Source of the DNA: an uncultured Acidobacteriota bacterium
Lineage (GTDB): Bacteria > Acidobacteriota > Blastocatellia > RBC074
Assembly (NCBI GenBank): GCA_963796275.1
Contig: CAWCKY010000006.1
Location: forward strand, 1,728,001 to 1,792,000
Reading direction: 5' to 3'
DNA length: 64,000 bases
Shown: positions 7,141 through 37,430 of the stretch, one piece after another
Layout: every line of letters begins with the position of its first letter
How positions within the stretch are numbered: position 1 is the first letter of the stretch
Program-made: the position numbers and the translations under genes
The notes under the pieces: model-generated
What the model saw: the letters and a program-made list of their open reading frames with translations, nothing else
Databases searched by the model: none
Told to the model about the DNA's origin: nothing

Positions 7141-7235
7141 GAGTTAACCTCAACTATTTTTAAGCTGAAAGGGCACGAGGAAATAGCCAGGATTGAAGCG
7201 AAGCGCAGCCGCCGGCAGGTATCAGTAAATCGCCG

Positions 7236-7345: not shown

Positions 7346-7416
7346 GCGCCCCCGTTGCGGCATCAAGTTGATCTGACCAGCTTTTAAATCGCTTTATGCA
7401 TTAACGATTTCCAGAA

Positions 7417-9267: not shown

Positions 9268-9380
9268 CCGATTTCACCTCAAGTAATAACGCGAAATCAA
9301 AAGGCAAAAAGGACTATCAGTGATTGTTCATCGCCGCGTTAACGGCGTGAATTCATGATGTTGCCTTTTGATTTTTCCAC

Positions 9381-15808: not shown

Positions 15809-15842
15809 ATCTGGAATTGTGAACAGATTTCCAGATAGGAGG
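15809..15842 (+). promoter_or_regulatory. Inverted repeat abutting the RBS of the umuD-like gene
   Basis: ATCTGGAA(15809-15816)-N12-TTCCAGAT(15829-15836), followed directly by AGGAGG. Confidence 0.4.
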
Positions 15843-15851
15843 ATGTGTATC

Positions 15852-16262
15852 GTGATTAAAGAAATTGGGCAGCCGCAACTGACCAATGCCACCACAACGG
15901 CCAATAAATCCGCTTGGGGAGGATTTCCCAGCCCGGCCGATGATTACCTGCATCGCGCCCTCAATCTGAACGATCATCTCGTTCCGCATCCCATCTCCAC
16001 CTTCTTCATCGAGGTCAAAGGCGATGCGATGGCCGGCGAGAAAATCTTCGATGGAGATACGCTGGTGGTCGATCGAGCGGCCGATATTCGCGCCGGGCAC
16101 ATCGTAATCGCCGTCTCTGGCGGGGAGTTTATACTGCGCAAAATCGTCAGTCAGGAAGGCCGGTTCCTGCTTGTCTCCGATGATTCAGACAAGATGCCGA
16201 TCGAGCTGAATGACGCCTGTGAAATCTGGGGTAGGGTAATGTGGTCGCTCACCAGACACTAG
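15852..16262 (+). CDS. umuD: UmuD-like S24 family protein with substituted catalytic residues
   Basis: GFPSPADDY, TFFIEVKGDAM, IFDGDTLVVDR, IWGRV motifs. Start placed at GTG 15852, 9 nt after AGGAGG. Confidence 0.82.
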   Translation: MIKEIGQPQLTNATTTANKSAWGGFPSPADDYLHRALNLNDHLVPHPISTFFIEVKGDAMAGEKIFDGDTLVVDRAADIRAGHIVIAVSGGEFILRKIVSQEGRFLLVSDDSDKMPIELNDACEIWGRVMWSLTRH

Positions 16263-17129: not shown

Positions 17130-17525
17130 TAGAGTTTCCGTAGGGAGTTCGCCATAAATGGATGATAGAGAAAGCACGACCTGGGGAATCGGGGGGAAGT
17201 AAATTTATAGAGAATCGGCGCATCGTCTGCTGTAGTGTGTCCAACGGCTGCTTACCAGTTAGGTTCGAGGGGAAAGTAAGCTTGCCGAACTTGTCGCGGC
17301 ACCCACCTCCCCAAGCGCATGGGCCGCAGCGGTGAATATGAGTGGTTTGACATCGGCAATAATCCGACCAACCAAATCATCCGAAAGACAAACCCACGAG
17401 AAGCTCAGCGCCTTGTGGCGTGTGACCCCCCTTGTAACATTCGCCAGTCGGTGCCGACCGCGGGCCGAGACTAACCAGAGTACCAACAATATACCGCACT
17501 AGGTATCGAGACCTTTCGTTTTCTT

Positions 17526-17553
17526 TTGACTTTCTAATTCGTTAGGATATTAT
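17526..17553 (+). promoter_or_regulatory. Candidate sigma70 promoter for unit 1
   Basis: TTGACT-N16-TATTAT. TTGACT is conserved in copy 2 (28830) but the spacer there is shortened. Confidence 0.4.
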
Positions 17554-17792
17554 AGGATTCATCTAGCTACCCCATCTTGAGCAGTTGATCTTCACCCATG
17601 CCTGTGGAATCAGCTGTGAGGAGGGGCTTTATTCTTCATAGCCAGAGATAAATCCATTACCATCTCTTGGATATCCTCACAGGCAAAGACGACCAACTTC
17701 CTCATTCCGTACATCAAAGAAAAAGAAAGCCTTCTGATGCGTTAGCTGACAGCCGGCCTCACATCAGATTTGAGCCAAGGAGCACTCCCCCC

Positions 17793-18515
17793 ATGAACAA
17801 TTATTGTCATTCCTGCGGCCAGATCGATGGTTTCGAATATTCAATAACAAAGAATTTAAAGGACACAGCAGAATCACACCCTAACCAATCTCTTTTCTCC
17901 TGTTCAAAATGTGGTTGCAGTATATTGATCGAACGTCAAATAGAACCGAAGGAATCAGTCCCTTTGCCAACCCTCAATCCAGCTGTGCCCGCTGACCTGG
18001 AGCAGCTTGTAGAAATCCTTCTGCCCGATGTTAACGATGCTGTACGTTGGGCCTCTCTCCGGTATCAAGGTCGCATTTGCCAGGATGAGCTCGATGATCT
18101 CTCACAACAAATTATCCTCAGGCTGATAGAGGATAACTGCCGCCGGTTCCTTTCATTCAGCGGGCAAGCTTCATTCAAGACATGGCTCCAAACAGTAGTA
18201 GATCACCACGTATACAAATATCTCTGCCGACAGAAACGAACCGAGGCCCTGGATGAAATAGACTGGGAATCATTGACCTATTCACCACTGCAAGATCAAG
18301 GTATCGATACTGCAGAAAGGCGAAAACTGCTCTTCAGCGCACTCAGCAAGTTGAGCCGGCAAGAGCGGCTGTTATACCAACTTTGGTTTTTATCTGAGCT
18401 AGATGCTAAGGAGATAGCCGCTATCTTCAGGACCGAAGTCAAGATTATCTACAGGCGCAAGCAAACACTTGTTTGCAAACTCACGAGGCTCATGCAGAAC
18501 TTCCGAGGTCGCTAA
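17793..18515 (+). CDS. ECF sigma factor with an N-terminal CxxC...CxxC extension
   Basis: Start ATG 17793 follows AAGGAG and is conserved in copy 2. Motifs CHSC...CSKC, DELDDLSQQIILRL...FSGQASFKTWL (sigma2), ALSKLSRQERLL...EIAAIF...IYRRK (sigma4). Confidence 0.85.
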   Translation: MNNYCHSCGQIDGFEYSITKNLKDTAESHPNQSLFSCSKCGCSILIERQIEPKESVPLPTLNPAVPADLEQLVEILLPDVNDAVRWASLRYQGRICQDELDDLSQQIILRLIEDNCRRFLSFSGQASFKTWLQTVVDHHVYKYLCRQKRTEALDEIDWESLTYSPLQDQGIDTAERRKLLFSALSKLSRQERLLYQLWFLSELDAKEIAAIFRTEVKIIYRRKQTLVCKLTRLMQNFRGR

Positions 18516-18599
18516 AGAAAAATTTCGCTGGCGAAGGTGAATTTACCCGCGAAATGTCTCTATATACATGAAAGGTCAACAAGCTGTCGGCGAGAGGTA

Positions 18600-18897
18600 G
18601 GCTGCTCTTTGCTCGATCAGACAGAATGGAATTGCGCCTGAGCGATGTTTCGCTGAGTAAGGTGTGGTGTGTGCGGTAACCGGTTGACCGCCGAGTTAAC
18701 GGGATTAGCGGCAGCGCGGAGGCTGCTGGTAATATCCTAAACCACGGATCATCATTCGCTCACCCATCGTATCGGGGAAAATCAGTGATCAATTCCCGAG
18801 CAGTTAGTATTTACTCCCATAACACATTCATTTGGGAAACCCGGCATGTCGCTGGCGATAACAGCCGCCGCAAGACATGCCATTGAAGAGGTAGTGA
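18600..18897 (+). ncRNA. Candidate structured 5' leader of the subtilase gene
   Basis: At least five consecutive inverted repeats, including GGCATGTC/GACATGCC just before the RBS. Retained in copy 2 (~29540-29835). Confidence 0.4.
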
Positions 18898-21800
18898 ATG
18901 CGAAGACAACATCTCCCCATCCTGACGGTATCGGCCTTTGGCTTAATCGCTATCTCTATCATCCTGGCTGGAGCCTGGGAGATTCTTCCCGGAGCGCTCT
19001 CGCAAACCCCGGCTAACTCCGCGCAAGAGCAAGTCTCGCCCGCCGAACTCGCGGGGGCCGTCGCAGAGCAGAGACTGGCCGCCGCACTGCTGACCCGCAG
19101 CGCCTCATTCGACGAAAGATTCAACAAATTGAGCGAGAGAGCGCTGAGGAAGGGAACCGTGCCGTTGATTGTCAGGGTGCGGGCCGCGTTTCAGCCCGAA
19201 GGCCAACTTTTGAATGCGGCACAACGATTGGCGCAGCGCAGCGTAATCCAAGAAGCGCAGGAGCGATTGCTGGCCGAGCTAAGGTACGTGCCGTCATCGC
19301 TCAAGAGATATAAATATATTCCTTACCTTGCGGCGGTGGTCGATACCGCAGGCCTGGCACAGCTCCAATCATCGGGCAATGCGTTGGAAGTGATCGAGGA
19401 CAGGTCGCTGAAATTGACCACGGGGGATAGCCTTCCGCTGGTAGGAGCGACAACGTCCTGGGCCGGCGGATATACGGGGAACAATAAGACTATCGCCATC
19501 CTCGACAGCGGTGTGGACAAGACACATCCGGATTTAACAGGCAAGGTCGTCTCCGAAGCATGTTACTCCACCGGCAATCTGACAGATTACGAATCTCTTT
19601 GCCCGGGCGGAGGTCCATCTTCCACAGCGGTAGGCTCCGGAATTCCGTGTACCGATGTGCCCGGCCTGGTGGGCGGCTGCTACCACGGAACCCATATCGC
19701 GGGAACGGCGGCAGGGCGAACGGGTGTCGCCATTAACGCGAACATCATCTCCATTCAGGTAATGTCACATGTTACCGATCAGTTTGAATGCGGCAACGAG
19801 AGTTGTCTGCGAGCGAAAACCTCCGACACTTTGCTTGCCCTGGAGCGCGTTTATGAACTGAGCAGTAACCCCACATACAATATCGCTGCGGTTAATATCA
19901 GTCTGGTGACCGACGCCCCCATGGAAAAATATAGTGACCACTGCGACGAGGTAGACAGCTCGCTTACGGCCATTATCAATCAGCTGAAGTCGGTGGGGAT
20001 CGCCACGGTAGTCGCAGCCGGCAATTATGGCTTTACAGACGGTCTAAGTTTTCCCGCCTGTATCTCATCCGTCATCAACGTCGCCGCCACGGGGGACGGC
20101 AGCAGTTCAGGGACGACTACAGATAGGGTGATTCCCGATTCAAACAGTGCTGATTTTCTCAAGCTGCTTGCCCCCGGCGGCGCCATCACCGCGCCCATAC
20201 CGGGCGGCGGATACGCTACCGGAGTGGGCACTTCGCAGGCGGCGGCTCACGTGTCGGGAGCCATGGCCTTACTAAGGCAAGAACTTCCCATCGGTGCTAA
20301 TAATACTGTTTGGTTTGATGATGGCTTGCCTGCGGGCGCCACGCCGTGGCCTGCCGACACTGCGACTGGAGGCGTGGTTGAATCATGGAACTGGGTGACG
20401 GCAAATCCGGCGCCAAACTCCGGAACTCAGTCACATCAATCGTCCGTGGCGCCAGGGATACGACAACATTACTTTATGGGCGCTACATCTAGGTTACAGG
20501 TAGGGACAGGAGAAATGCTCTATGCCTGGGTCTATCTTGATCCGGCAAGTATGCCTTCTGAAATAATGCTCCAATGGAATGACGGTGCGAGCTGGGAGCA
20601 TCGAGCATATTGGGGGGCGAATATCATAGGTTGGGGTCAAGATGGAACACCAGCGCGGATAAATATGGGGAGGCTGCCGGAAGCTGGGAGATGGATCAAG
20701 TTGGTAGTTCCCGCTCATGCGGTTGGGTTGGAAGGTGTAGCAGTAAATGGAATGGCATTTTCACAATATGGAGGGCGAGTGGCATGGGATCAGACGGGAA
20801 AAGCCTCCGCGTCAGTTGACGATTTACTGACTCTATTAAGAAGCACTGGCGTGCCAGTGACAGATACACGCCCTGACGCAAATAATCGCTCTGTGCCGCG
20901 GATCAGAATCGGCGCGGCCATGGGTGTAAATCCGCCGGATGAAAGTTGGCTGGTGGCATATTTCAATAATCCCGATTTGACGGGAGAGCCGACAGCGCGG
21001 GGAACCGACGGCATGGGATTCATCGACCGTGATTTTCAGGGCATCAGCCCTGCACCTGGAATCGATACTACGGACTACTCGATCCGCTGGACTCGCAACC
21101 TCACACTCACTCAAGGACTCTATCGCTTCTCGCTTACTGCCGACGATGGGGCGAAGCTCTACATCGACGATGTATCGCAGATTAATGAATGGTCTAATAA
21201 GACGATGGCGACCAGCTATCACGTAGATGTGAGTTTGTCTGCAGGCACGCACCGGATTAGATTGGAATATTACCAGGCTGAGAGTGATGCGAAGGTGCGC
21301 TTGAGATGGGCGTTATTTAACCCTACCTGCTCGCAGACAGTAGCGGCTGATCGATGGAAGGGTGAGTATTACAACAATATAAATCTGGCTGGCAACCCAG
21401 CGATGGTGCGCGATGACCTCAGCGGCAATCCGTTCGGCTTTGATTGGGAGGGCGGGCCTAATACCACCTGCAATATGATATTTGGCGATTGGTTCTCTGT
21501 TCGCTGGACTCGGGCGGTTGACTTTGCGGCAGGCCGGTATCGCTTCACGTTCACTAATATAGATGACGGATTCAGGCTTAAAATTGGCGGTCAACTGCTG
21601 ATCGATCGGTGGTTTGATGCGGCAGGGACGCATGTGGTTGATGTAGATCTTCCCGCGGGCAATCGCACAATCGAATTTGAGTATTACGAGAAGGGAGGCG
21701 TTGCGAGAGCCAACGTTTCCTGGTGTCTCTTCCAGACCGGCATTGTCGTCGTAAGTCCCGGCGTATACCTGACGCCACCCGGCCCGGACCATTCGGCAGT

Positions 21801-22269
21801 TACTTCGCCGTCGAACACAGGACACGGGGCAACAATGGTTACCTCCGCTTCGTCAAGTCAGGGGAAGAGTTGCCAGTGGTATGCGTTTCAGGCTGTCAGC
21901 GGGCTGATCAAAAAGATCACTCTTAAATTCGATTGGTCTATCAACGGAAGTGTCAGCACGGACGCCCCGCTCGGCAGCGGCGCGCATGCCTTCGCTTCAT
22001 TCAATGTCCAATACAAGACCGGTAGCGAGGTTTTTTTTGCAGTCAGTAAAATTGAAAGCAGTTTCATTTATCTTGGCCCCGGTGGGGAGTTTAAGCCATT
22101 CAACGATTCCGGCTCAGTCAGTGTCGATCTGTCGGCCAGCACGCCGATAAATCAGATTATTGTTTTTGACATATCATACGCGACGGCATCAAGTGGCACC
22201 GGCTCCGCGAACATGACCGCGACGGTCTCAAACATCCGCCTCGAAGTCGAGAGGGAGCTTTGCCATTGA
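18898..22269 (+). CDS. Secreted S8 subtilase: prodomain, inserted domain, two PA14 domains, beta-rich C-terminal domain
   Basis: Catalytic triad ILDSG, HGTHIAG, GTSQAA. N-terminal hydrophobic segment. PA14 motifs YSIRWT...ADDG and FSVRWT...IDDG. Confidence 0.9.
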   Translation: MRRQHLPILTVSAFGLIAISIILAGAWEILPGALSQTPANSAQEQVSPAELAGAVAEQRLAAALLTRSASFDERFNKLSERALRKGTVPLIVRVRAAFQPEGQLLNAAQRLAQRSVIQEAQERLLAELRYVPSSLKRYKYIPYLAAVVDTAGLAQLQSSGNALEVIEDRSLKLTTGDSLPLVGATTSWAGGYTGNNKTIAILDSGVDKTHPDLTGKVVSEACYSTGNLTDYESLCPGGGPSSTAVGSGIPCTDVPGLVGGCYHGTHIAGTAAGRTGVAINANIISIQVMSHVTDQFECGNESCLRAKTSDTLLALERVYELSSNPTYNIAAVNISLVTDAPMEKYSDHCDEVDSSLTAIINQLKSVGIATVVAAGNYGFTDGLSFPACISSVINVAATGDGSSSGTTTDRVIPDSNSADFLKLLAPGGAITAPIPGGGYATGVGTSQAAAHVSGAMALLRQELPIGANNTVWFDDGLPAGATPWPADTATGGVVESWNWVTANPAPNSGTQSHQSSVAPGIRQHYFMGATSRLQVGTGEMLYAWVYLDPASMPSEIMLQWNDGASWEHRAYWGANIIGWGQDGTPARINMGRLPEAGRWIKLVVPAHAVGLEGVAVNGMAFSQYGGRVAWDQTGKASASVDDLLTLLRSTGVPVTDTRPDANNRSVPRIRIGAAMGVNPPDESWLVAYFNNPDLTGEPTARGTDGMGFIDRDFQGISPAPGIDTTDYSIRWTRNLTLTQGLYRFSLTADDGAKLYIDDVSQINEWSNKTMATSYHVDVSLSAGTHRIRLEYYQAESDAKVRLRWALFNPTCSQTVAADRWKGEYYNNINLAGNPAMVRDDLSGNPFGFDWEGGPNTTCNMIFGDWFSVRWTRAVDFAAGRYRFTFTNIDDGFRLKIGGQLLIDRWFDAAGTHVVDVDLPAGNRTIEFEYYEKGGVARANVSWCLFQTGIVVVSPGVYLTPPGPDHSAVTSPSNTGHGATMVTSASSSQGKSCQWYAFQAVSGLIKKITLKFDWSINGSVSTDAPLGSGAHAFASFNVQYKTGSEVFFAVSKIESSFIYLGPGGEFKPFNDSGSVSVDLSASTPINQIIVFDISYATASSGTGSANMTATVSNIRLEVERELCH

Positions 22270-22787
22270 TAACGTTGCCGGAGACCGGCAGAAGGAAGGG
22301 TGTTACTTTCAACAATACTCTCGCGGTCAAGTCAGCAATGCAGATCATCCCGCAGCGGTATCTCTACCAGAAACCGTACCGGAGAAATTCGCGCCGGCTG
22401 ATACCAACAAACTATCGGGTCAACAATCGAGAATGCTGCTGCCGCCTGGATCTGACGCCGGCGCGAAGGCCACCTTGCCAAAGCCGAAAAGAGAGAAGCG
22501 CACCACCGGCCTTGCAGATATTCTCTTAACCTAAGGGGTCAGCTTCTAGATTCGCTAGCTGATAGGCGACGTCAGATGAAGCTCTGCCCTCTGTGCTGTA
22601 GAGAGGCGATTGGTGTAACAAATGCACGCAGACTGTTATTGATTCTGTAGCAAAGCGCACAGAGATCGATTGGAGTTAGATGGTAATTCGCTCGACAATT
22701 TCGCGAGCAATCATATTTTTACCGTGAATCAGCACATCATTCCAGCTCAGGGGTATGATTGATGCAAAATTCACTAGGGGTAACCTC

Positions 22788-25700
22788 ATGTTCAACTCAT
22801 TTACCGCCGTCGCGATTCGTCATTTAGTTCCATGCAATCTGTTGCTCATAACACTGGCAGCACTGCAAACCATATGTTTGGCGCAAGCCCCGAACGGTAA
22901 GCAGTACACATCGACGATGAACGATCTGAATGAGCGAGCCAATGTCGAAGTAGATCCATCATCGCTGGGGTTAAATATCAGCATCTCGTTGGCCGACTTC
23001 CCCGGACGTGGGGTGAGCCTGCCAGTCACGCTGCGCTACTCGTCGAAGATATGGCAGATCAAGCACAACGGGACAAACATCAACCCCGGCGACGGCAATA
23101 TTTCCGAGTACACCCTCTCTGGTGTGTGGTATACCGGCACTCGAGCGGGCTGGACCTCGAGCCTTACTGTTCCTTATATCGAATTCACCGGGCAGACGGA
23201 GCCCTTTATTGCCAGGTTCAATCTCGCCAACCGCGACCTGGCTGCTCCCGACGACGGGAATGCCTGGGATTACGCATTCCCACCTCGAGTTGAAGGTAAC
23301 TCAACTCCTCTTATGTATTCCGCCAACCGCGCGATACTACGAATGCCCGATGGTTCATCACACGAAATGCGACAAGATGATTTGGTCCATTTCGGCACCG
23401 TCGGTGGCCCAGTAAACAGGATCTATTATGCAGCGGACGGCTCCCGCATAAAGTACGATCCAACCAGTCAAGTAGTTTTTTTGCCCGACGGCTCTCGCTA
23501 TCTACTGAACACGGCCAATGGGGCGCAATACATTGATCGCAACGGCAACACGCTGAACTACAACTCCAATACCAGCGAGTGGACAGATACGCTCGGACGA
23601 GTAATTCCAGACCCTCTGGGCGGCAGCAGCGGTAGCGACTATCACTGGACAGTGCCCACGGCACAAGGCGGGACTGCAACCTACATCTTCCGCTGGAGAT
23701 TACTCAGCGAATCGTTAACGGACACTACTCAGCCTCTGCACTATATTGGCCCAGTCATGATGAAATTTTCTGGTGGATATCCATTTATCGAGTCAGTTCC
23801 CGGGCCATCCTTGTTTGGCGAATCTTCCCTTGGGTTAGGGGCGGACCGCCCTGCCTATGTCCTCGCGCTGCGCTTCTCTCCCGGTCCGCCCGAATTGTTC
23901 AATCCCGGTGTGCTCTCTGAGATCGAACTGCCGAACGGTCAGAAGTATAGATTCACCTACAACGTATACGCTGAGTTGGACAAAATATATTTACCGACGG
24001 GAGGTTACAAGAGATATCGCTATAACCGTGTGCCGGCCTCGGACCTCGACAATCAGTCGCTCGCCTATTCGCAGGCCAATCGCGGTGTGGTCGAGGGGAT
24101 AGAGAGTGTTACGGGCAAACCGCAAGATGAGACACCCCCGTGGACCTTTCAACCCGCGAGCCTAGGTACTGCCAACGTTACGGCGACCAACCCCGACGGG
24201 TCGTTTGTGCGGAGGTACATTCATGAGCGGGATGCACTCAACAATATGTTTAACGCCAGCCCACGCGAAGCGATTGCCGGGAGGATTTATGACGAGGAGT
24301 TCCACTCAGCATCAGGGCAAATGCTCAGGCGCATCCTGACGAACTGGGTTTATACTGGTCCCCAGCATCTCCCACCCATCCCTCACGCCCAAGAGCCTAT
24401 CGGTATGGATTGGACCTCACGAGACGCTCGCGTGACGCGAAAAGTGGAAATCTTGCTCGATACTTCTGGCAATGCCTTGGCAAAGGCAACTGAGTATCTC
24501 TATGACAACGATCTGAATGTCGCCAGCACAAAATATTATGATTATGTCTCTATCAGCAAGTCTACTGGGCAGTCCGCTCCGATTGGTTCGATTCCGAATG
24601 GTGCCCTGTTGAAAACGGAAGAGACCACATATCTGGTCAACGACGCTTCTATCGCGCAAACTACTCGGGATGCTTACCGGGCACGTCACTTGACTGCTCT
24701 TCCGTCGAAGACCCTTGTCAGAGATAGCTCAAATGCTGTCGTCGCCGCGACAGAGTACAAATATGACGAGAGCGCCTTTCCGCTCACCACCTACTCTGCT
24801 GTTTCCGGCTGGAGCGATCCGCAAACTCCTTTCCGAGGCAACGTCACGACCATTCGCCGGTGGCTAGACAATAATCATCCCTGGGGAGGTTGGACAAGCG
24901 GGACATGGATAGAGACTCACACTTGGTACGATCAGTGCGGCAATGCCATCAAAGTCAGAGATGCAAATAACAATGATACCATAATAAGTTATGAGGATAA
25001 TTTCTACGACTTTCCGCCGCAGAACTCCCATGCCTACCCTACTAGCGTGACAACAGCAGGGCCAGCGCACACGACTTTTACTAAGCATGATTTCAACTCC
25101 GGTTTAGTAAGAGAAGTGACTGATCCCAATAATATCAAGACCAGATACGATTACAATGATTCTTTTAATCGATTGACCAGGATGGTTCGTGCAGAAGGCA
25201 CGATCGTGGAGAATCAAACGACGATTCAATATGAGGATTACAGTCGCATTGCTACAACCACCAGCGATCGTAACAGTTTTGATGATAATATACTCAAAAG
25301 TCAATTAGTCTATGATGGGTTTGGGCGCACTATCGAATCGCGGCAGTACGAAACTGGATCGTCCTACATCGCAATCAACACTATTTATGACGTGCTCGGC
25401 AGCGTGTCGCAGGTATCGAACCCTCGCCGGTCGGGCGATCCTTTATGGACAACAACTGAGTATGACGCGCTCGGCCGTGTGATCAGAGTAACCACTCCCG
25501 ATGGCGCGCAGGTCATTACTCAATATAGCGGCAACCAGGTGACGGTCACCGATCAGGCCGGCAAGAGTCGCCGCAGCAAAACCGACGCGCTCGGCAGAAT
25601 GACTGAAGTGACTGAAAACCCGGGCGGACTGAGTTACCTGACAACATATGAATATGACACACTGAATAATCTACTCAAGGTGAAGCAAGGGCTGCAGGTT

Positions 25701-28127: not shown

Positions 28128-28138
28128 AAGGAAACATT

Positions 28139-28522
28139 ATGGGCGGGGTAATAAGTTTTTCAAGTAAGACCGAAGAAGTTTGGGGTGTTGTTGCAGGGTG
28201 GGCCTACCGGCAAGTGATGGACGACGTAATTTCTCAGTATCCGGGAGATTCGGAAATGGCCGGCATATTCGCCGAGGCAAAGGCCATTGGCGGCCTTCAT
28301 CTCTATTTGCTGGAGCCAGAGATTGCAGTCAGGATCAAGAGAGGCATCTGGCAAGTGGCGACAGGCATCCTGTCCGGAACGATCCGATCGGGTATTCACG
28401 ACCAACCTTATGGTGACACGAGAACCATCGAACAGTACCGAGAGGTATTACAAGAATTACTGGAAACCTTTCCCCCGGCTTGGAGAGAGGAACGTGATTC
28501 TGAGCAAAGTCCGCCGCACTGA
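28139..28522 (+). CDS. Probable cognate immunity protein (cytoplasmic)
   Basis: 127-aa acidic ORF 11 nt after the RHS stop, with an AAGGA RBS and no signal peptide. Function inferred from position. Confidence 0.7.
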   Translation: MGGVISFSSKTEEVWGVVAGWAYRQVMDDVISQYPGDSEMAGIFAEAKAIGGLHLYLLEPEIAVRIKRGIWQVATGILSGTIRSGIHDQPYGDTRTIEQYREVLQELLETFPPAWREERDSEQSPPH

Positions 28523-28819
28523 ATAGTTACCTTTGCAGGCCCACATTAACGACATCAAAGAACAACCACTTTCACGTGAAGAGAAGGCTAGAAATGATGC
28601 TGAAGAGGCACACTTTTCTCAAGCACCCACTACATAAACAGGGGGAAAAGGAAAGGTCATCTGATAATGGTTTTATGTTCGCGGGCCAATGTGCTAGTGA
28701 AAGCGGTTGCTCAGCGCGAACATAACATAAAACGGCATTATCGGACCCGAACAAGGTGCTTGATATGGTAAAGCACCTGACAAACATGAAAGAATGAAAT
28801 GCTCATAAGAGCATGTGGA

Positions 28820-31800
28820 GACTTTTCGGTTGACTGTTTAATTAGATATAGTATTTATCTAGCTACCCATCTTGAGCAGTTGATCTTCACTTGCGTCCGT
28901 GGGATCAGCTGTGAAGAGGGGCTTTCTTCTTCATAGGCAGAGCTAGAGCCATTACCATCTCTTGGATATCCTCACGGGCAAGACGACCAACTTCCTCATT
29001 TCTTACATCAATAGAAATAGAAAAGCCTTCTGATACGTTAGCTGACTGCCGGCCTCACGTCAGATTTGAGCCAAGGAGCACTCCCCATGAATAATTATTG
29101 TCATTCCTGCGGCCCGATTGATGGATTCGTGTATCCAGACCTAAAGAAGTTAAAAGACACAGCGGCAAAATCACATCTCAATCAATCTCCTCTCTCCTGT
29201 TCGATATGTGTCTGCGATTTATTGATCGAATGTCAAATAGAACGGGAAGGATCAGTATCTCTGCCAAATCTCACTCGCACTCAGCAAGTTGAGCCGGCAA
29301 GAGCGGCTGTTATACCAACTTTGGTTTATATCTGAGCTAGATGCTAAGGAGATAGCTGCTCTCTTCAGGACCGAAGTCAAGATAATCTACAGACGCAAGC
29401 AAACACTTGTTTGCAAACTCATGAGGCTCGTGCAGAACTTCCGAGGTCGCTAAAGAAAAATTTCGCTGGCGAAGGTGAATTTACCCGCGAAATGTCTCTA
29501 TATACATGAAAGGTCAACAAACTGTCGGCGAGAGGTAGGTTACTCTTTGCTCGATCAGACAGTATGGAATTGCGACTGAGCGATGTTTCGCTCAGTAAGA
29601 TGTGGTGTGCGCGGTTACCGGTTGACCGCCGAGTTAACGGGATTAGCGGCAGCGCGGAGGCTGCTGGTAATATCCCAAACCACGGATCATCATTCGCCTA
29701 CCCATCGTATCGGGGAAAATCAGTGATCAATTCCCGAGCAGTTAGTATTTACTCCCATAACACATTCATTTGGGAAACCCGGCATGTCGCTGGCGATAAC
29801 AGCCGCCGCAAGACATGCCATTGAAGAGGTAGTGAATGCGAAGACAACATCTCCCCATCCTGACGGTATCGGCCTTTGGCTTAATCGCTATCTCTATCAT
29901 CCTGGCTGGAGCCTGGGAGATTCTTCCCGGAGCGCTCTCGCAAACCCCGGCTAACGCCACGCAAGAGCAAGTCTCGCCCGCCGAACTCGCGGGGGCCGTC
30001 GCAGAGCAGAGACTGGCCGCCGCACTGCTGACCCGCAGCGCCTCATTCGACGAAAGATTCAACAAATTGAGCGAGAGAGCGCTGAGGAAGGGAACCGTGC
30101 CGTTGATCCTCAGGGTGCGGGCCGCGTTTCAGCCCGAAGGCCAACTTTTGAATGCGGCACAACGATTGGCGCAGCGCAGCGTAATCCAAGAAGCGCAGGA
30201 GCGATTACTGGCCGAGCTAAGGTACGTGCCGTCATCGCTCAAGAGATATAAATATATTCCTTACCTTGCGGCGGTGGTCGATACCGCAGGCCTGGCACAG
30301 CTCCAATCATCGGGCAATGTGTTGGAAGTGATCGAGGACAGGTCGCTGAAATTGACCACGGGGGATAGCCTTCCGCTGGTGGGAGCGACAACGTCCTGGG
30401 CCGGCGGATATACGGGGAACAATAAGACTATCGCCATCCTCGACAGCGGTGTGGACAAGACACATCCGGATTTAACAGGCAAGGTCGTCTCCGAAGCATG
30501 TTACTCCACCGGCAATCTGACAGATTACGAATCCCTTTGCCCGGGCGGAGGTCCATCTTCCACAGCGGTAGGCTCCGGAATTCCGTGTACCGATGTGCCC
30601 GGCCTGGTGGGCGGCTGCTACCACGGAACCCATATCGCGGGAACGGCGGCAGGGCGAACGGGTGTCGCCATTAACGCGAACATCATCTCCATTCAGGTAA
30701 TGTCACATGTTACCGATCAGTTTGAATGCGGCAACGAGAGTTGTCTGCGAGCGAAAACCTCCGACACTTTGCTTGCCCTGGAGCGCGTTTATGAACTGAG
30801 CAGCAACCCCACATACAATATCGCTGCGGTTAATATCAGTCTGGTGACCGACGCCCCCATGGAAAAATATAGTGACCACTGCGACGAGGTAGACAGCTCG
30901 CTTACGGCCATTATCAATCAGTTGAAGTCGGTGGGGATCGCCACGGTAGTCGCAGCCGGCAATTATGGCTTTACAGACGGTCTAAGTTTTCCCGCCTGTA
31001 TCTCATCCGTCATCAACGTCGCCGCCACGGGGGACGGCAGCAGTTCAGGGACGACTACAGATAGGGTGATTCCCGATTCAAACAGTGCTGATTTTCTCAA
31101 GCTGCTTGCCCCCGGCGGCGCCATCACCGCGCCCATACCGGGCGGCGGATACGCTACCGGAGTGGGCACTTCGCAGGCGGCGGCTCACGTGTCGGGAGCC
31201 ATGGCCTTACTAAGGCAAGAACTTCCCATCGGTGCTAATAATACTGTTTGGTTTGATGATGGCTTGCCTGCGGGCGCCACGCCGTGGCCTGCCGACACTG
31301 CGACTGGAGGCGTGGTTGAATCATGGAACTGGGTGACGGCAAATCCGGCGCCAAACTCCGGAACTCAGTCACATCAATCGTCCGTGGCGCCAGGGATACG
31401 ACAGCATTACTTTATGGGCGCTACATCTAGGTTACAGGTAGGGACAGGAGAAATGCTCTATGCCTGGGTCTATCTTGATCCGGCAAGTATGCCTTCTGAA
31501 ATAATGCTCCAATGGAATGACGGTGCGAGCTGGGAGCATCGAGCATATTGGGGGGCGAATATCATAGGTTGGGGTCAAGATGGAACACCAGCGCGGATAA
31601 ATATGGGGAGGCTGCCGGAAGCTGGGAGATGGATCAAGTTGGTAGTTCCCGCTCATGCGGTTGGGTTGGAAGGTGTAGCAGTAAATGGAATGGCATTTTC
31701 ACAATATGGAGGGCGAGTGACATGGGATCAGACGGGAAAAGCCTCCGCGTCAGTTGACGATTTACTGACTCTATTAAGAAGCACTGGCGTGCCAGTGACA

Positions 31801-31928
31801 GATACACGCCCTGACGCAAATAATCGCTCTGTGCCGCGGATCAGAATCGGCGCGGCCATGGGTATAAATCCGCCGGATGAAAGTTGGCTCGGAGCATATT
31901 TCAATAATCCCGATTTGACGGGAGAGCC
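28820..31928 (+). repeat. Long direct repeat, copy 2
   Basis: Aligns with ~17510-20990 apart from a deletion in the ECF gene. Confidence 0.92.
29087..29453 (+). pseudogene. ECF sigma paralog lacking sigma2 (deletion plus frameshift)
   Basis: Begins MNNYCHSCGPIDG, then joins directly to gcactcagcaagttgagccgg at ~29277. About 360 bp of copy 1 (~17978-18337) is absent. Confidence 0.88.
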
Positions 31929-33132
31929 GGTATTGGTAAGAAACGACGGCATGGGATTCATCGACCGTAATTTTGGTGAGGCGAGCCCCGCTCCCGGAAT
32001 TGCTACAAACGACTACTCGATCCGCTGGACGCGCAACCTCACGGCAACCGCCGGGACCTATCGCTTCTCGCTCACCGGTACTAACAGGATGATGCTCTAC
32101 ATCGACGACGCCTTGCAGATCAATCAATTGGTGAATGGGACTGTGGCGACCAGCTATAACGTCGATGTGAACCTGTCGGCGGGCACTCATCGGATTAAGT
32201 TGGAATATTTCCAGACTGAGGGCGATGCGATGGTGCGCTTGAGATGGAAGTTATTCGATCCCACCTGTTCGCAGACGGTAGCGGCTGAGCGCTGGAAGGG
32301 CGAGTATTTCAACAATATAAATCTTGCCGGCAGCCCGGCGATGGTGAGCGATGAGGGCGTGGGGGATCTGGACAAGAGATTCGGGGTGGGCAGTCCCAAC
32401 CCGGCCTGCGCTATGTTTGACGACCGATTCTCGGCGCGCTGGACGAGGTGGGTGGAGTTGGCCGCGGGACCGCATCGATTCTTCGTCGGAGGAGATGACG
32501 GAGTGCGGTTCTATCTAAACGGAACGCGATTGGTGGATAGGTGGGTGGATCAGGGGTATACGGTCTATACGACCGAGGTCAATATCCCCATCCAAGGCAA
32601 TTACAAACTTGAACTGGAGTTTTATGATAACGGATTGGATGCCCGGGCCAGTGTTAGATGGGATTCGGTGAATCCGCCGGCAAACCTGATAGCCACCGCG
32701 GTGTCGGCCACACGGATCAACTTGAGCTGGATCGACGGCAATAGCATTGAGGATGGATTCAAAATAGAGCGGTGGAACGGCAGCAGTTTTGTCCAGCTTA
32801 ACACGGTGGGCGCCAATGTTACGACGTATGCCGATTCGGGGCTTACCCCCTCAACCAACTACCGCTATCGTGTTAGGGCTTTTAACAGTATTGGGAACTC
32901 AGGTTATTCCAATGAAAGCAGCGCGACAACATTGCCACCGCCGACACCACCACATTCTTGCCCTCAATCCTGCACGAATCCCCCCCTTGAATGTTATGCT
33001 GGCAACTATGATCCTTGTAGGTATCCTGGCACTGGATGTCCGTCTGGCAGTTTCAACATTGGCAATGGTTGCTGTAGATATCCTTTCGGGTGCGCTTCTT
33101 CTTTAGAACGACGGCAAAACCGCAAAAAATAA
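29836..33132 (+). CDS. Secreted S8 subtilase paralog: two PA14 domains, FN3 domain, Cys-rich tail
   Basis: First ~690 aa nearly identical to 18898-22269. FN3 motifs PPANL...INLSW...YADSGLTPSTNYRYRVRAFN...YSN, then a tail with 8 Cys. Confidence 0.9.
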   Translation: MRRQHLPILTVSAFGLIAISIILAGAWEILPGALSQTPANATQEQVSPAELAGAVAEQRLAAALLTRSASFDERFNKLSERALRKGTVPLILRVRAAFQPEGQLLNAAQRLAQRSVIQEAQERLLAELRYVPSSLKRYKYIPYLAAVVDTAGLAQLQSSGNVLEVIEDRSLKLTTGDSLPLVGATTSWAGGYTGNNKTIAILDSGVDKTHPDLTGKVVSEACYSTGNLTDYESLCPGGGPSSTAVGSGIPCTDVPGLVGGCYHGTHIAGTAAGRTGVAINANIISIQVMSHVTDQFECGNESCLRAKTSDTLLALERVYELSSNPTYNIAAVNISLVTDAPMEKYSDHCDEVDSSLTAIINQLKSVGIATVVAAGNYGFTDGLSFPACISSVINVAATGDGSSSGTTTDRVIPDSNSADFLKLLAPGGAITAPIPGGGYATGVGTSQAAAHVSGAMALLRQELPIGANNTVWFDDGLPAGATPWPADTATGGVVESWNWVTANPAPNSGTQSHQSSVAPGIRQHYFMGATSRLQVGTGEMLYAWVYLDPASMPSEIMLQWNDGASWEHRAYWGANIIGWGQDGTPARINMGRLPEAGRWIKLVVPAHAVGLEGVAVNGMAFSQYGGRVTWDQTGKASASVDDLLTLLRSTGVPVTDTRPDANNRSVPRIRIGAAMGINPPDESWLGAYFNNPDLTGEPVLVRNDGMGFIDRNFGEASPAPGIATNDYSIRWTRNLTATAGTYRFSLTGTNRMMLYIDDALQINQLVNGTVATSYNVDVNLSAGTHRIKLEYFQTEGDAMVRLRWKLFDPTCSQTVAAERWKGEYFNNINLAGSPAMVSDEGVGDLDKRFGVGSPNPACAMFDDRFSARWTRWVELAAGPHRFFVGGDDGVRFYLNGTRLVDRWVDQGYTVYTTEVNIPIQGNYKLELEFYDNGLDARASVRWDSVNPPANLIATAVSATRINLSWIDGNSIEDGFKIERWNGSSFVQLNTVGANVTTYADSGLTPSTNYRYRVRAFNSIGNSGYSNESSATTLPPPTPPHSCPQSCTNPPLECYAGNYDPCRYPGTGCPSGSFNIGNGCCRYPFGCASSLERRQNRKK

Positions 33133-33314
33133 GGCTTTTCCGCAAAATTGCCGCCCCATATAAGTTATTTTTTGGAGATATGACTATGAGGCAATAGCTA
33201 GACGTGAAAAATATGTGGCGTATTGGTTCTTCTACTCGGGATCCATTGTAAGGACTCGAAGCTAACAGATGAATACGGCAGCCGAAAGGTATTAAGCATG
33301 CTCATGGGAAAAAT

Positions 33315-33679
33315 CTCTACATCGACGATCAATTGAAGATCATCAGTGGTTGCCAGCTGCAGGCACGCATACAGTAGCCAATGTTTCCTGGGCGCTCTGC
33401 CAGACCAGCATCATCGTCATATGTCCCGGCGCCTACTAGACGCCTAATCAGGGTGGGCTGGCTGTGAACTCTCAGTCGAACACGGGGCACGGAAGCACGG
33501 ATACATTATCGACGGTCGATGTTCCTGGAGGATGGAATTCCGGATCTATTTCTGCCGCCAAGTCGGCTCGGTGGTCATCTTTTCAATCGGTTTCGGGCGT
33601 GATTAGTACCAGGCTGAAGTTCGATTGGTCGATTAGCGGTTACGCAAGCGCGCAAGACAGTGTCGGCGGGAGCGCCTAG
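33315..33679 (+). pseudogene. Decayed orphan cassette homologous to the C-terminus of subtilase 1
   Basis: ANVSWALCQTSII..PGAY*TP...AVNSQSNTGHG...KSARWSSFQSVSG...LKFDWSISG, compared with ANVSWCLFQTGIV..PGVYLTP...AVTSPSNTGHG...KSCQWYAFQAVSG...LKFDWSING. Confidence 0.8.
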
Positions 33680-33779
33680 TCTAATTGGGGTTAATATTGC
33701 CTTCTCTATTGTAGAGAGAACGATTTGGAGTAACACCATAACTTTGGTTGTCTCTTCCATCATCGAAGGAGTTAATCGT

Positions 33780-36620
33780 ATGTTTCCTCGCGTGTGTGTC
33801 ATTCTTTTCTCAGTTCTTAGGTTCACTTTTCATATCCCTCACATCGCTCTATCTATTATTCGTCCATTTCATTTTACTAGTTTTTCATTAATTACTCTTC
33901 TTGTCATTACCACCTTCATTGCCCCCAGAGTGAATGCGCAATCCGGGACAATCTATGATGGCTATACTCCTACCGGCGTGGCGCCGGGGTCTCCTACCGG
34001 ATCGTATGCGGTCAGTGACCTGGAAGATATCAACCTGTTTAACGGCCATTTGAATTTGAACTTCCCATTGTTGAGAGTTGGCGGGCGTGGGGCGATTGGG
34101 CATACGGTCTTGTTGAATATTCAACCACTCCCGTGGCACATCAGGCCGGTCTTTTTTCTGCCAGGCAATGAACTTGATATAGCCAGTGACATTAGTTACG
34201 AACCCTTAGTTAAATATGGCCCAGGCGCTTTGCGCGTTCAACACGGGGTGGTTGGTGATCTATCCCCGTGCGATGGCACCCAATGGGTCTCAACCCTAGC
34301 CCGGCTAGTATTCTATACCTCGGATGGCACACAGCTCCGGCTTCATGACCAGGTATATCAAGGAAAAGCCGTAAGTCATCGCTGCTCGGATCATCCTGGC
34401 CCAAACCGTGGGAGAGTGTTCGTCAGCGCTGATGGCGGGTCTATGACATTCATATCCGATACCGACGTTATTGATCCGCCACCAGCTGTTAGTGGAATAG
34501 GCAACACTATATCGGGCAATCTGATGATGAAGGACGGCACTCTTTATCGTATCGATGTTGGTAATGTCAGTTTTATTCGCGATCGGAATGGCAATAAAAT
34601 CAACTTCACGTATCAAGGTTCCCTTGGCCAGGTAACTTCGATCACCGATTCGCTAAACCGGCAGGTCACGATCTCTTATGCCGATCAGGGCGTACCATAC
34701 GATACAATAACCTTTGATGGCTTTGGCGATGCTAACCGGGCAATTAAGGTCTGGTACAGTCCGTTGCAAGCAGTGCTTCGACCTGACTTCGCGATTAAAA
34801 CGTATAAGCAACTGTTTCCAACACCGGACGCAAATTGGGGTGGACCCTATGACGGCAACGAAATTTTTAACCCAGGACGTGTTTCAAAAATTGAACTGCC
34901 CAACCAGAAAGCCTATGAGTTGTATTATAACTCTTATGGTGAACTCGCGCGCTTAATCCTGCCCACGGGAGGCGGCGTTGACTATGATTATGTGAATGGA
35001 CACCGTGCCGGGCTCATGCTCAGTCGCCGGTTAAGCAAACGCACAAGCTATACAACCTTGACCTCCACAACCAATCCATCTAACCCGCCGCCAGGAACTG
35101 TGGAAGGCAAACAATTTTACAGTATGACCATCATTTCCCATGGTACGGGCGTTCCTGAAACTGTTGTTACAGTGGAGCACAAAGATGCCGGGAATCTTCT
35201 TTTGGCTCAAGAAAAACACTATTTCTATGCCTTTGCTACGGAGGAGGCTGGCGGGTGTCTACCTACTCTCTATTCACCCTGGTATTCAGGCCGAGAGTTC
35301 AAAACAGAAAGATACAGTGTCACCAATGGAGCTTTGGGAAGTGTGTTAAAGAGAATAGAGCATACGTGGTATCCAAATTTACCATCTATCCACTACGTTT
35401 GCCATCAGAATGTAAATGTAGACCCTGCCCCGAATCCGAGAATCATCCAGACCACTACTACCCTGTTGGACACCAACCAGGTGACCAGGCAGACTTTCAC
35501 TCATGATCAATACAACAACGTGGTCGAAGTTGATGAATATGGTTACGGTAACGGTGCGCCTGGCCCATTGATTCGGCGCACATATACTTCATATCTCACG
35601 AACAATCCCTGGCAGAATAACGTGAATTATGCAACCGATCCCAATATTCACATCAGGGACCTCCCGACCCAGATTTCTATCTTCGATAACAATGACACTG
35701 AATTCTCGAGAATGTCTTTTTACTATGATGTATATAGTCAAGCTCCACTCCAAGATTGCCCAAACATTGTTCAGCATGATGGTGGGTTTAATACCGAATA
35801 TGGCCCGCGCGGCAATCTGGTCAAGACAACCAAGGTAACCGATTTTGATCAAGCCGCAAATAATATTGACAATTACTTCCATTATGACATCGCCGGCAAT
35901 GTAGTTAAGACGATTGATGGGCGAGGATTCCCAATAGATTACGAATTCACTGACCGCTTCGGCTCGCCGGATGACGACGCACAGGAGAACACGCCGCCCA
36001 CCCAACTGAATGAGCAAATGACCTATGCGTTTCCCACTAAAGTCACCAACGCGCTCGAGCATACGACATATGCCCAATACGATTATTACATCGGCAAGCC
36101 CGTTAATGTGGAAGACACCAATGGGGTCGTCAGCAGCATTGCTTACAATGATACTCTCGACCGCCCGACCCTGAACATTCAGGCGAGATATATTGTAGGC
36201 AGCATACCAGCTATGAGAAGGCAGGCGGCTTTCACCTATGACGATGTGAATCGCGTGATCTCGACGACCATTGACCGTGCCAAATTCAACGACGATACCC
36301 CCTTGACCAGCAAATCTTATTACGTCGGCCTCGGCAGAAACTGGCGCAGTGCAGCATATGAAGGCTCCACCTGGGCAATCACAGACAAGCAGGCGGCTTC
36401 CCGTCTTCCCCACTACCGGGACAAACGGGGCACAGTTCTTTACCTTCCTGATACTATTTACTTATATACATCATCATGGTCAGAGGCAGACAAGGCCACG
36501 GAGAGAAGAGCAAACATTGACAGGTTTCTGGAAAGGCCACGTTATGCAGGGGGGACATATAGCCTTACGCCAAACAGGCAGGGAGGAAAGAGCTTTAGAC
36601 GTGGTGCTCGTAGATTTTAA
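33780..36620 (+). pseudogene. Second RHS protein, N-terminal half only; core deleted in frame
   Basis: ATG 33780 follows GAAGGAG. Signal-like segment ending VNAQ, then INLFNGHLN and YD-type repeats. No DHLGS or DPxG core. Sequence character changes after AITDKQ (~36390). Confidence 0.8.
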
Positions 36621-36633
36621 GGGGAGGGTATTT

Positions 36634-37170
36634 ATGAAAAGGTTTCTTTCTTTCTTCACCGTTTTCTTCATTGTGATTGTTGTAGTTGTGTCAGCCCAGA
36701 CTAGACAGCCCATTAAACATTCATCTGAAATCCGCCTGTCTAGTGATAAGCCGAGTGTTTACATCTCCTATGTGCGGTCTGGGAAGCGTGAGCCTCTTAG
36801 GGCAGATGAAAGTGATGAAGGGATATGGCTACGACTTCACAACAATACGAAATGGACAATCATTTTCCCGGCTTTTGATGTTCCAGAAACACATGGAGAC
36901 GTTGGGATGTTCTACATCCTCGAATCGGTCTCAGCAGGAATCACTGATATACCCAAGGGAAATGAGATAAGAGGTGCACATTCTACAGATGAGTTGGGGC
37001 CTGGAGAATCAATTGTGTTCAGTGTACCTCGCGAGCATCTTCCCAAGAAGGCTGTGTTGCGGGTGAGTTTCAGCTACGAGTGGGAAGATCGGGCTGATGT
37101 TTTTGCGGGTAGAGAGGTCGAACACATCGCCTCCTTTTATGCGTCAAAGCTCCCAGGGCTGAAGCAGTGA
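36634..37170 (+). CDS. Secreted protein, probable immunity partner of RHS2
   Basis: GGGGAGGG RBS right after the RHS2 stop; signal peptide MKRFLSFFTVFFIVIVVVVSAQ; 178 aa. Confidence 0.65.
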   Translation: MKRFLSFFTVFFIVIVVVVSAQTRQPIKHSSEIRLSSDKPSVYISYVRSGKREPLRADESDEGIWLRLHNNTKWTIIFPAFDVPETHGDVGMFYILESVSAGITDIPKGNEIRGAHSTDELGPGESIVFSVPREHLPKKAVLRVSFSYEWEDRADVFAGREVEHIASFYASKLPGLKQ

Positions 37171-37184
37171 TAATTAAAGCAAAT

Positions 37185-37237
37185 GGGGAGTCGGAGGTCG
37201 GCTGATAACGCGTGTTATCATCTGCCCGGCTTCCATT
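37185..37237. repeat. Hairpin downstream of the immunity gene
   Basis: TGATAAC-gcgt-GTTATCA core with outer arms atggggagtcgg and ccggcttccat. Confidence 0.4.
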
Positions 37238-37401
37238 GTCCACCCCCCTCGCGCAGCGGCTGCGGTCGCGGCTCGCGCGCTCCCTTCGCCGAACATCCCC
37301 GCATATGGGCTCCAGGCGGCGAGAATTTTACGGCTGGGCTTTCGGCTACGGCTGCAGTCCGAGCAGTTCATCGGTGGTCATTCCAAAGCCAATGAATTTA
37401 G

Positions 37402-37430
37402 CCGTGCGTTTTAACAGTTTTAACGCACGG
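37402..37430. repeat. REP-like palindrome
   Basis: CCGTGCGTT...AACGCACGG, with a duplicated gttttaac in the centre. Confidence 0.45.

Follow-up and report, generated by a model that had tools for sequence, protein, structure and literature searches.

Introduction

The well-studied routes for RHS proteins run through type VI secretion (T6SS), with PAAR and VgrG, or through TcA. PAAR-Rhs effectors of T6SS have a small gene for an Eag chaperone directly upstream. Among the Tc toxins, Yen-Tc of Yersinia entomophaga has chitinases as enzymatic accessory subunits. In Bacillus subtilis, WapA has a tRNase tip and undergoes trimming by extracellular or wall proteases. We know of no route by which signal-peptide RHS toxins are exported, matured or targeted in diderms. 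Here, we describe a gene cassette with such an RHS gene in a 64,000-nucleotide stretch of an uncultured Acidobacteriota bacterium (GenBank assembly GCA_963796275.1, contig CAWCKY010000006.1, positions 1,728,001 to 1,792,000, forward strand). We refer to the whole stretch as the window, and to its genome as G000.

A protease tied to a polymorphic toxin is already a known idea, given the listings found in parts of Zhang et al. 2012 (PMC3482391). There, subtilisin is listed among the processing proteases built into Sec-dependent toxins, the Ntox32 entry reads 'Peptidase S8; Repeats: RHS', and a mycosin-like protease is placed in the Ntox38 neighbourhood.

The cassette consists of genes for an extracytoplasmic function (ECF) sigma factor, a secreted peptidase of family S8 (subtilase) with PA14 domains, an RHS protein with a signal peptide, and a small protein. 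An earlier note on the same DNA had proposed a repeated unit of this kind. Our analysis indicates that regulator, secreted S8-lectin, Sec-signal RHS cocoon toxin and immunity-type gene probably form a conserved cassette whose products act together.

Results and Discussion

An intact cassette in the window

ORF (open reading frame) listing, Pfam scans and blastn revealed two consecutive units on the same strand. The organism, a Blastocatellia-like soil acidobacterium, carries one intact copy of the cassette (unit 1) and one decayed copy (unit 2). Unit 1 has the order ECF sigma factor, S8 subtilase, RHS1 and small gene:

17519..17792, + strand: leader 5ʹ of the ECF gene, with a sigma-70-like TTGACT-16-TATTAT at 17526-17553
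17793..18515, + strand: intact gene for an ECF-type sigma factor, 240 aa, with a profile match to sigma-E
18516..18590, + strand: conserved post-ECF element with an A-rich run, an inverted repeat, TATATAC and ATGAAAGG; candidate promoter
18898..22269, + strand: secreted subtilase S8-1, 1123 aa (Pfam S8 E 4.4e-21, PA14 E 9.5e-23); a signal anchor and propeptide precede the S8 core, aa 194-470
20293-20817, + strand: 175-aa beta middle module of S8-1, between S8 and PA14
20818-21732, + strand: the two PA14 domains of S8-1 (Pfam E 9.5e-23)
21733-22269, + strand: X1 tail of S8-1, 178 aa, family-less
22755..28127, + strand: RHS1, 1790 aa (Pfam RHS_repeat E 2.6e-30, 5 stretches)
to 25454, + strand: signal peptide of RHS1 (by eye) and divergent N-terminal shell part, ~850 aa without a Pfam match
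25455-27434, + strand: RHS1 core, RHS repeats
from ~27510, + strand: unique C-terminal toxin region of RHS1, ~200 aa
28139..28522, + strand: small 127-aa gene that starts 12 nt past RHS1; immunity candidate by position only

Signal peptides of the S8 and RHS proteins were assigned by eye from translations. By their Pfam matches, S8-1 and its counterpart in unit 2, S8-2, are both subtilases with a PA14 pair. S8-2 has the order S8, middle module, two PA14, fn3 and Cys-rich tail (Pfam S8 E 5.4e-21; PA14 pair E 1.7e-21). The alignment of S8-1, S8-2 and the proteins of a related genome, G030, shows that DSGVD, HGTH and GTSQAAAHVSG, which we take to be the Asp, His and Ser triad motifs of subtilases, are kept in all of them. 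By analogy with its family, the PA14 pair would bind glycans. The X1 tail has no Pfam match, and Atlas places it in unnamed clusters only.

The middle module, absent from the earlier note, is weakly linked by Atlas to CBM30 and SGBP-B (0.91). It is a generic extracellular repeat: it occurs at 65 loci, 2 of them with RHS, and is found in tandem in many soil metagenome proteins. It also lies inside RHS-type proteins of G000, namely in a chimeric remnant (C4:82582-84505) and, as three copies, in a 2189-aa RHS protein (C7:95149-101718, or L077:9149-15718).

Conservation of the protease-RHS pair

Among 87 genomes of the family, S8 genes of >54% identity occur only in G030, which belongs to another genus (genome G004 enters only such broad tallies). 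G030 has three loci with the order TPR-CHAT, ECF, zf-HC2 protein(s), S8-PA14-PA14-fn3-BACON and RHS. Two of them, L030 and L031, are intact; L032 is decayed, with the S8 gene cut down and a cupredoxin-like gene present. The RHS genes of G030 are broken into two or three overlapping frames, either by true frameshifts or by long-read assembly errors, and L030 has an orphan RHS core fragment downstream (14774-15567). More distant S8 genes in the family genomes have no RHS gene following.

Scanning metagenomes with the S8 domain plus middle module yielded L171-L184, 14 relatives, whole or partial, of 57-72% identity. RHS is the next gene of note in 9/9 loci whose sequence extends 600 nt or more beyond the S8 stop, the other 5/14 ending too early to judge. 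It follows S8 directly in 7/9, with gaps of 47-164 bp; of the remaining two, one has an intervening 305-aa ORF and one an intervening cupredoxin-like gene. The S8 cores are identical within the pairs L171/L172, L179/L180 and L174/L183, and close in L176/L184, and the nine amount to ~7 distinct cassettes. A further relative is the metagenome protein P0005, which holds S8, middle module, two PA14, fn3, PA14 and an RHS1-type RHS in a single frame of 3094 aa. It shares 58% identity with S8-1 across 949 aa and 48% with RHS1 across ~1600 aa.

We placed these genes in a quick IQ-TREE phylogeny of 36 S8 cores, 34 of them different, leaving aside L175-L177, whose S8 is truncated where the contig ends, the frameshifted L184 and the fragmentary L032. 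One clade, with SH-aLRT 100, contains all 10 judgeable RHS-linked rows and 5 short-contig rows, and nothing else. RHS lies next to 10/10 judgeable S8 genes in the clade, the window genes included. Outside it, 0/16 S8 genes with at least 1.5 kb downstream have RHS within 3 kb; 5 further rows are not judgeable, among them L036, L037, L044 and L048, whose contigs end too early. By this tree, RHS linkage is confined to a single well-supported S8 clade, and this S8 subfamily is inherited with RHS wherever the neighbourhood can be judged. The gene-order search suggested by the earlier note thus finds the pair of S8-PA14 and Sec-signal RHS again in G030, in 9/9 metagenome loci and in P0005.

Could this linkage reflect descent alone? 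The protease-lectin would then be an ordinary secreted degradative protein that sits beside RHS in a mobile island, the block being inherited or exchanged among few soil lineages. Such a history fits the narrow group of organisms, with G030 as the one other family member found, and the near-copies among the metagenome loci. It also fits the generic nature of the middle module, the lack of a protease beside most RHS genes of the family, and the fact that RHS-free secreted S8 proteins with fn3, BACON or PA14 repeats are common there. However, the pair persists while the regulator type, the RHS N-terminal type (RHS1-like, RHS2-like and others) and the tail vary. S8 identity falls to 57-65%, yet the gap to RHS stays at 47-164 bp, and in P0005 the two parts share a continuous frame. 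The confinement of RHS linkage to one well-supported clade also speaks against mere co-inheritance. We consider descent alone an unlikely account.

The regulator slot

The start of the ECF gene was set at ATG 17793 because AAGGAG precedes it. Taken alone, the protein matches Pfam Sigma70_r2 with E 4.4e-4 and 20.4 bits, under the cut-off of 24; hence its assignment needs a profile. When 15 relatives are combined into a profile, it matches sigma-E of E. coli (1or7) with E 3.5e-9 over positions 61-178, and other ECF sigma factors match too. By this comparison, the unit-1 sigma factor is of ECF (group 4) type with regions 2 and 4 and a very divergent core. Its translation begins with a CxxC...CxxC extension that is restricted to the ECF copies of this genome: the closest relatives align from residue 41-45 onward, and the ECF ORF in G091:C293 begins without it. 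No zf-HC2 or other anti-sigma match was found beside the gene in Pfam scans of the unit ORFs.

The spacer between the ECF gene and S8-1, described in the earlier note as ~380 bp and conserved, measures 382 bp and is 96.9% alike between the units. It has no + strand ORF of at least 70 aa. The post-ECF element occupies its first part. This element is ~70 nt long, contains the inverted repeat TCGCYGG...CCSGCGA, and has its unit-2 copy at 29454-29528. It was found 3ʹ of the ECF stop in 8 loci from at least 3 organisms (both window units, G000:C1, G000:C4, L155, L156, L157 and L179). A 15-nt degenerate core of the element occurs 4 times in 9.46 Mb, in every case 3ʹ of an ECF copy or remnant. We propose it as a candidate promoter, or operator, serving the downstream gene.

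Conservation of the leader is narrower. It is ~80-89% alike among the 4 copies in G000, a level that does not exceed that of the coding sequence. In the other loci compared, which included L155-L157, G091 and G088, the region upstream of the ECF gene gave no blastn match to the leader. The leader was also considered as a regulatory RNA and rejected, with no Rfam match and conservation only among the four G000 copies at coding-part level. Scans for sigma-70 promoters and terminators were at shuffle level (22 vs 20.4 and 17 vs 17.2, respectively).

ECF genes of the window type, defined by at least 55% identity to the window ECF, precede several other members of the cassette family. In G091, one (C293) lies before an S8-less protein with X1 and two PA14, a 307-aa ORF and RHS, and another (C752) before an S8 remnant and an RHS start. 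One lies before S8 in L179/L180, one at a contig end in G088, and remnants persist at G000:C4 and C7. Among the loci of ECF relatives that we examined, those with ECFs of ≤40% identity have no RHS or S8 nearby.

Other regulators occupy the same position elsewhere. The G030 cassettes have an ECF with zf-HC2 protein(s), and a sigma-54 activator precedes S8 in L171, L173, L181 and L183. Inspection by eye shows GGCAC-N5-TTGA, which resembles a sigma-54 -24/-12 site, between activator and S8 in L171, L181 and L183, and the same site before S8 in L174 and L184. Since the regulator may be an ECF, an ECF with anti-sigma or a sigma-54 activator, the cassette core, as judged from these loci, consists of protease and RHS, with an exchangeable regulator in front. 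This modifies the earlier note, in which each unit had a dedicated ECF: the ECF is one of several regulators in that slot.

Whatever the regulator, a 5ʹ untranslated region motif, CGCCGCAAGGCG...CATTGAAGAGGTA, precedes S8. It is kept in the 11 cassette sequences aligned, comprising the window (18850-18897), L030, L031, L032, L173, L174, L178, L179, L181, L182 and L184. Its reading frames differ between loci, so it is not a peptide. As an RNA structure it was likewise discarded: RNAalifold gives a 4-bp hairpin only, with no compensatory change.

RHS1 and the small downstream gene

RHS1 has the features of a Sec-signal RHS/YD-repeat polymorphic toxin, in which a conserved core end is followed by a variable region. 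In translation, the core-end motif reads 'NNPLRYVDPDGQ' in RHS1 and 'NQPLKYIDPDGE' in P0005; we take it to be of the PxxxxDPxG autoprotease type. Towards its C-terminus, RHS1 shares just the last core residues with other RHS proteins, and its final ~200 aa have no tblastn relative in any locus examined. We tried to identify the toxin by sequence and adopted no family: the toxin region matches Pfam CdiA_C_tRNase with E 0.0026, under the cut-off, and the best E against PDB sequences is 0.53.

A structural model of RHS1 residues 44-900 has a mean pLDDT of 60.7 and reaches 80-90 only in its second half. The first 47 Foldseek matches listed are all Rhs, teneurin or Tc shells, or the mosquito RHS-type SGS1, with E down to 1.4e-16; TM scores among the matches listed are low (0.08-0.34). 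Neither RHS1 nor RHS2 has a Pfam match to TcdB_toxin_midN or SpvB. The 127-aa gene has no Pfam family and no tblastn relative in L030-L249. Its position makes it a candidate immunity gene for RHS1.

How the cassette might work

How would the products of the cassette act together? We propose that the ECF sigma factor, which has no adjacent anti-sigma factor and has a Cys-rich N-terminal extension, fires the promoter-like element past its own stop. This would switch on the protease and then RHS, by read-through or from a second promoter. Protease-lectin and RHS would both leave the cytoplasm via Sec. Once outside, the glycan-binding protease would work with RHS, most likely by processing or releasing it, or else by stripping the target surface; targeting of RHS is an alternative role. 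The RHS cage would carry the polymorphic C-terminal toxin, possibly an RNase, and the downstream gene would protect the producer.

Several observations weigh against this proposal. First, by sequence the organisms that carry the cassettes are few and related, and some loci are near-copies of one another, so that shared descent inflates the counts. Second, the view from the RHS side is different. A search with an alignment of the RHS N-terminal domain gave 73 loci, mostly from Acidobacteriota and a few under other phylum names, of which the 63 with at least 700 nt upstream were counted. S8 lies upstream of RHS in 2/63, both in G030, and 61/63 have no protease. Hence, as these loci show, RHS genes of this family do not in general need the protease, and an obligate role for it is weakened. 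In G000 itself, a window-type ECF at C1 stands directly before RHS with no protease between them. These loci contradict the claim, made in the earlier note, that each RHS is paired with a dedicated protease. Third, L155 (G091) keeps X1 and two PA14 and has no S8 domain, so proteolysis may not be the shared function. Fourth, the gap is 485 bp between S8-1 and RHS1 and 647 bp between S8-2 and the inferred RHS2 start, and a sigma-70-like site lies just before RHS1. These features make co-transcription of S8 and RHS in the window uncertain. Fifth, the TATATA -10-like box of the post-ECF element is untypical of ECF promoters. Finally, P0005 may represent a pair of genes that lack an intervening stop, or a fault of assembly, because the RHS signal peptide still lies within the frame.

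The RHS side also points to a second partner. A gene of 150-200 aa lies directly upstream of RHS in 37/63 loci (L080-L150, e.g. L104:9519-10007). We built a hidden Markov model (HMM) from 30 of the 37, which match by construction; new matches include L097, L131, L143, L149 and L150. The structural model of the protein (pLDDT 83.7) has one transmembrane helix and a cupredoxin-type beta sandwich, and its top Foldseek matches are CuA domains, EfeO, Cupredoxin_1 and FtrB (E ~1e-5). In L150, the cupredoxin-fold domain stands at the end of an 806-aa PKD protein. We regard this membrane-anchored cupredoxin-fold protein as a likely conserved RHS partner. The small ORFs upstream of RHS were also considered as ECF sigma factors; a phmmer search of 32 such ORFs with the window ECF gave no match, and they belong to a different family.

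A broader version of our proposal is tentative. Sec-exported RHS cocoons of soil Acidobacteriota may use the protease-lectin as an obligate second component, whether as maturase, release factor or targeting subunit. The result would be a two-gene module that works without T6SS or TcA and is governed by interchangeable single-gene switches (ECF or sigma-54 activator). The cupredoxin-like protein would be an alternative partner for the same step.

The protease-lectin could instead serve in delivery or targeting, as a structural subunit bound to the RHS cocoon in a TcA-like role, with PA14 and tail choosing the target and proteolysis secondary. It is the PA14 pair, not S8, that is common to all RHS-linked accessory genes, the S8-less L155 included. 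Furthermore, tail and RHS type are partly matched, as the earlier note suggested checking: the X1 tail goes with an RHS1-type N-terminus in 2/2 cases, and an fn3(-BACON) tail goes with the RHS2 type in window unit 2, in G030 and in 5-6 distinct metagenome cassettes. Secreted proteins with other modules (FG-GAP/TcdB_toxin_midN, Big_7/LTD, CARDB and PKD) also fill the slot upstream of RHS elsewhere, as does DUF4434; at the distant locus L142, the upstream gene combines TcdB_toxin_midN and FG-GAP. However, P0005, which joins an fn3-type tail to an RHS1-type RHS, and L174 and L175 break the pattern, and strict co-variation is contradicted. No TcA-like gene is present among the 20 large window ORFs scanned, and no pore-forming part was seen. 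We regard a purely structural role as improbable.

Unit 2

The second unit comprises the following features:

29087..29453, + strand: ECF remnant; N-terminal extension and region 4 kept, frame broken at ~29276
29836..33132, + strand: secreted subtilase S8-2, 1098 aa, intact (Pfam S8, PA14 and fn3; Cys-rich tail)
33368..33679, + strand: dead X1-like tail remnant with 2 TAG stops, 51% identical to S8-1 residues 935-1030
33780..36620, + strand: RHS2, truncated RHS gene with signal peptide and N-terminal domain; homology ends at 36398
36634..37170, + strand: small gene, 178 aa, with an N-terminal hydrophobic segment

By sequence comparison, unit 2 is a mosaic remnant in which only S8-2 is whole. 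The ECF gene lacks 358 bp, corresponding to 17980-18337 of unit 1 and to sigma region 2. The dead tail remnant is 45% identical to X1 residues 1-84. RHS2 has an N-terminal domain of ~870 aa, with homology to residue 871 and 42-44% identity to full RHS genes, and no Pfam RHS match. Past this domain its frame passes into unrelated sequence. There is no RHS core downstream in any frame; relatives run straight into the core. The 178-aa gene, an immunity candidate by position only, is the only copy in the genome, and no family or relatives were found for it. The earlier note had described two units of the same order; there are indeed two on one strand, of which unit 1 alone is intact. The second ECF is a pseudogene, and the second RHS gene of the note encodes an N-terminal domain with neither core nor toxin.

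Similarity between the units is uneven. In blastn, 17551-17979 pairs with 28847-29276 (84%) and 18338-21416 with 29276-32354 (95.7%). In a sliding comparison (unit-1 coordinates), the leader and ECF start are 78-88% alike, 18382-18681 is 94-95% alike, 18682-20931 (~2.3 kb) reaches 98-100% identity, the similarity drops to 73-83% in the first PA14, and the sequences beyond are unrelated. The two proteins have 99% identity in the S8 core and 66% in the PA14 pair, and their tails are unrelated, much as the earlier note had described them. The near-identical tract is sharp-edged and lies within older divergence, and is therefore likely the result of recent gene conversion between the two S8 genes.

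A single unit duplicated or mis-joined by the assembler is very improbable: the ~2.3-kb tract is the type of repeat that misleads assemblers, and no soil contig compared spans the unit boundary, but the units differ in leader, 358-bp deletion, PA14, tails, RHS and small genes, and short soil contigs, in a run that is possibly the source sample, match unit-1- and unit-2-specific stretches at ≥99%.

Genomic setting

Three further features frame the units:

15819..16262, + strand: umuD-like S24 peptidase gene (Pfam Peptidase_S24 E 1.2e-22), left island flank
39375..40649, + strand: umuC-like Y-family polymerase gene (Pfam IMS, IMS_C, DUF4113), right island flank
28650..28745, + strand: long hairpin element at the end of unit 1, with its right-hand continuation at 37205-37310

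The umuD-like and umuC-like genes lie on one strand, 23.1 kb apart, while a UmuD-like gene is directly upstream of UmuC in 6/9 UmuC loci of relatives. On this basis, 16263-39374 looks like a ~23-kb island inserted into umuDC. Besides the two RHS units, genes for an APH(6)-like kinase and a BamB-like protein lie within it.

The hairpin element is ~200 nt long with long inverted arms, and in the window it is interrupted by the whole of unit 2. Its halves are contiguous at G000:C4:85641-85837, C7:88293-88416 and C1:72580-72697. A soil contig, possibly another copy of the repeat, connects 28742 to 37252 with 32 other letters between. The element may be an end marker of RHS modules or a recombination site. 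A separate 63-nt repeat at 37393-37455 has at least 14 further copies over G000 contigs C3, C6 and C7.

Four large TPR-CHAT (caspase-like) genes stand in a row on the minus strand of the window (1-12897). TPR-CHAT genes also lie near the cassettes of L030 (97-3216, G030) and metagenome locus L173 (2739-6383), and beside tandem S8-PA14 genes of G001 (L035).

In a family search of G000, no PAAR, TssC or secretin gene fell in the window (C6:1728001-1792000), which bears out what the earlier note had said of PAAR and secretion genes. The genome carries three PAAR genes (C3:351016, C1:1289323 and C7:957352), one T6SS sheath gene (TssC, C3:1496478) and one secretin, all elsewhere.

Comparison with known systems

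The cassette resembles several described systems in part. In its regulator, it is like those ECFs with an N-terminal extension that have no neighbouring anti-sigma and whose extra N-terminal segment is possibly regulatory (Casas-Pastor et al. 2021, PMC7826278). According to parts of that paper, N-terminal extensions exist and are rarer than C-terminal ones; the CxxC...CxxC type is not among the examples in those parts.

T6SS PAAR-Rhs loci share with the cassette an Rhs cage, a polymorphic toxin, an immunity gene and a helper gene upstream. In contrast, the window is without PAAR, VgrG and T6SS genes, and RHS1 begins with a signal-peptide-like segment. The usual upstream gene here encodes a membrane-anchored cupredoxin-fold protein, or the S8-lectin.

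Tc (ABC) toxins are similar in having a large RHS cocoon, a putative one in RHS1, of ~1500 or more residues, and a separate upstream accessory protein with binding modules. The best TM scores of the RHS1 N-terminal model, at its pLDDT of 60.7, are to TcdB2-TccC3 and YenB/RHS2 (0.31-0.34). Unlike in Tc, a single chain with a Sec signal would make up the cocoon here, and a protease-lectin of ~1100 aa takes the accessory place.

WapA is like RHS1 in having a signal peptide instead of PAAR/VgrG and an RHS shell; in both, a conserved core end leads into a variable C-terminal toxin, and a small gene follows directly downstream. It differs in three respects: the host here is a diderm acidobacterium, the shell is much longer (~1500 aa), and an S8-lectin gene is genetically tied to RHS with a dedicated regulator in front. 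In parts of PMC8767453, the maturation of WapA is described only as analogous to that of the S8 protease WprA.

In the systems of Zhang et al. 2012, as far as the passages cited above describe them, the protease forms one domain within the toxin chain or is a T7SS (type VII secretion system) mycosin, whereas here it is encoded by a separate upstream gene. Those passages do not mention a separate conserved S8-PA14 gene upstream of RHS with a plug-in regulator, and the terms PA14 and 'sigma factor' have 0 occurrences in the text of the paper. A literature search found, in the portions of papers it reached, no description of the ECF / S8-PA14 / RHS layout.

Together, these comparisons suggest that the pairing of protease-lectin and RHS is a so far undescribed helper arrangement for Sec-dependent RHS toxins. 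Apparently inherited with RHS through changes of regulator, tail and RHS type, the protease-lectin is a concrete candidate for the missing helper, and the cupredoxin-fold upstream protein is a second candidate. The loci bear on competition among uncultured soil Acidobacteriota, a dominant yet little-studied phylum. Where T6SS effectors have PAAR and VgrG and Tc toxins have TcA, these RHS proteins may have a secreted protease-lectin.

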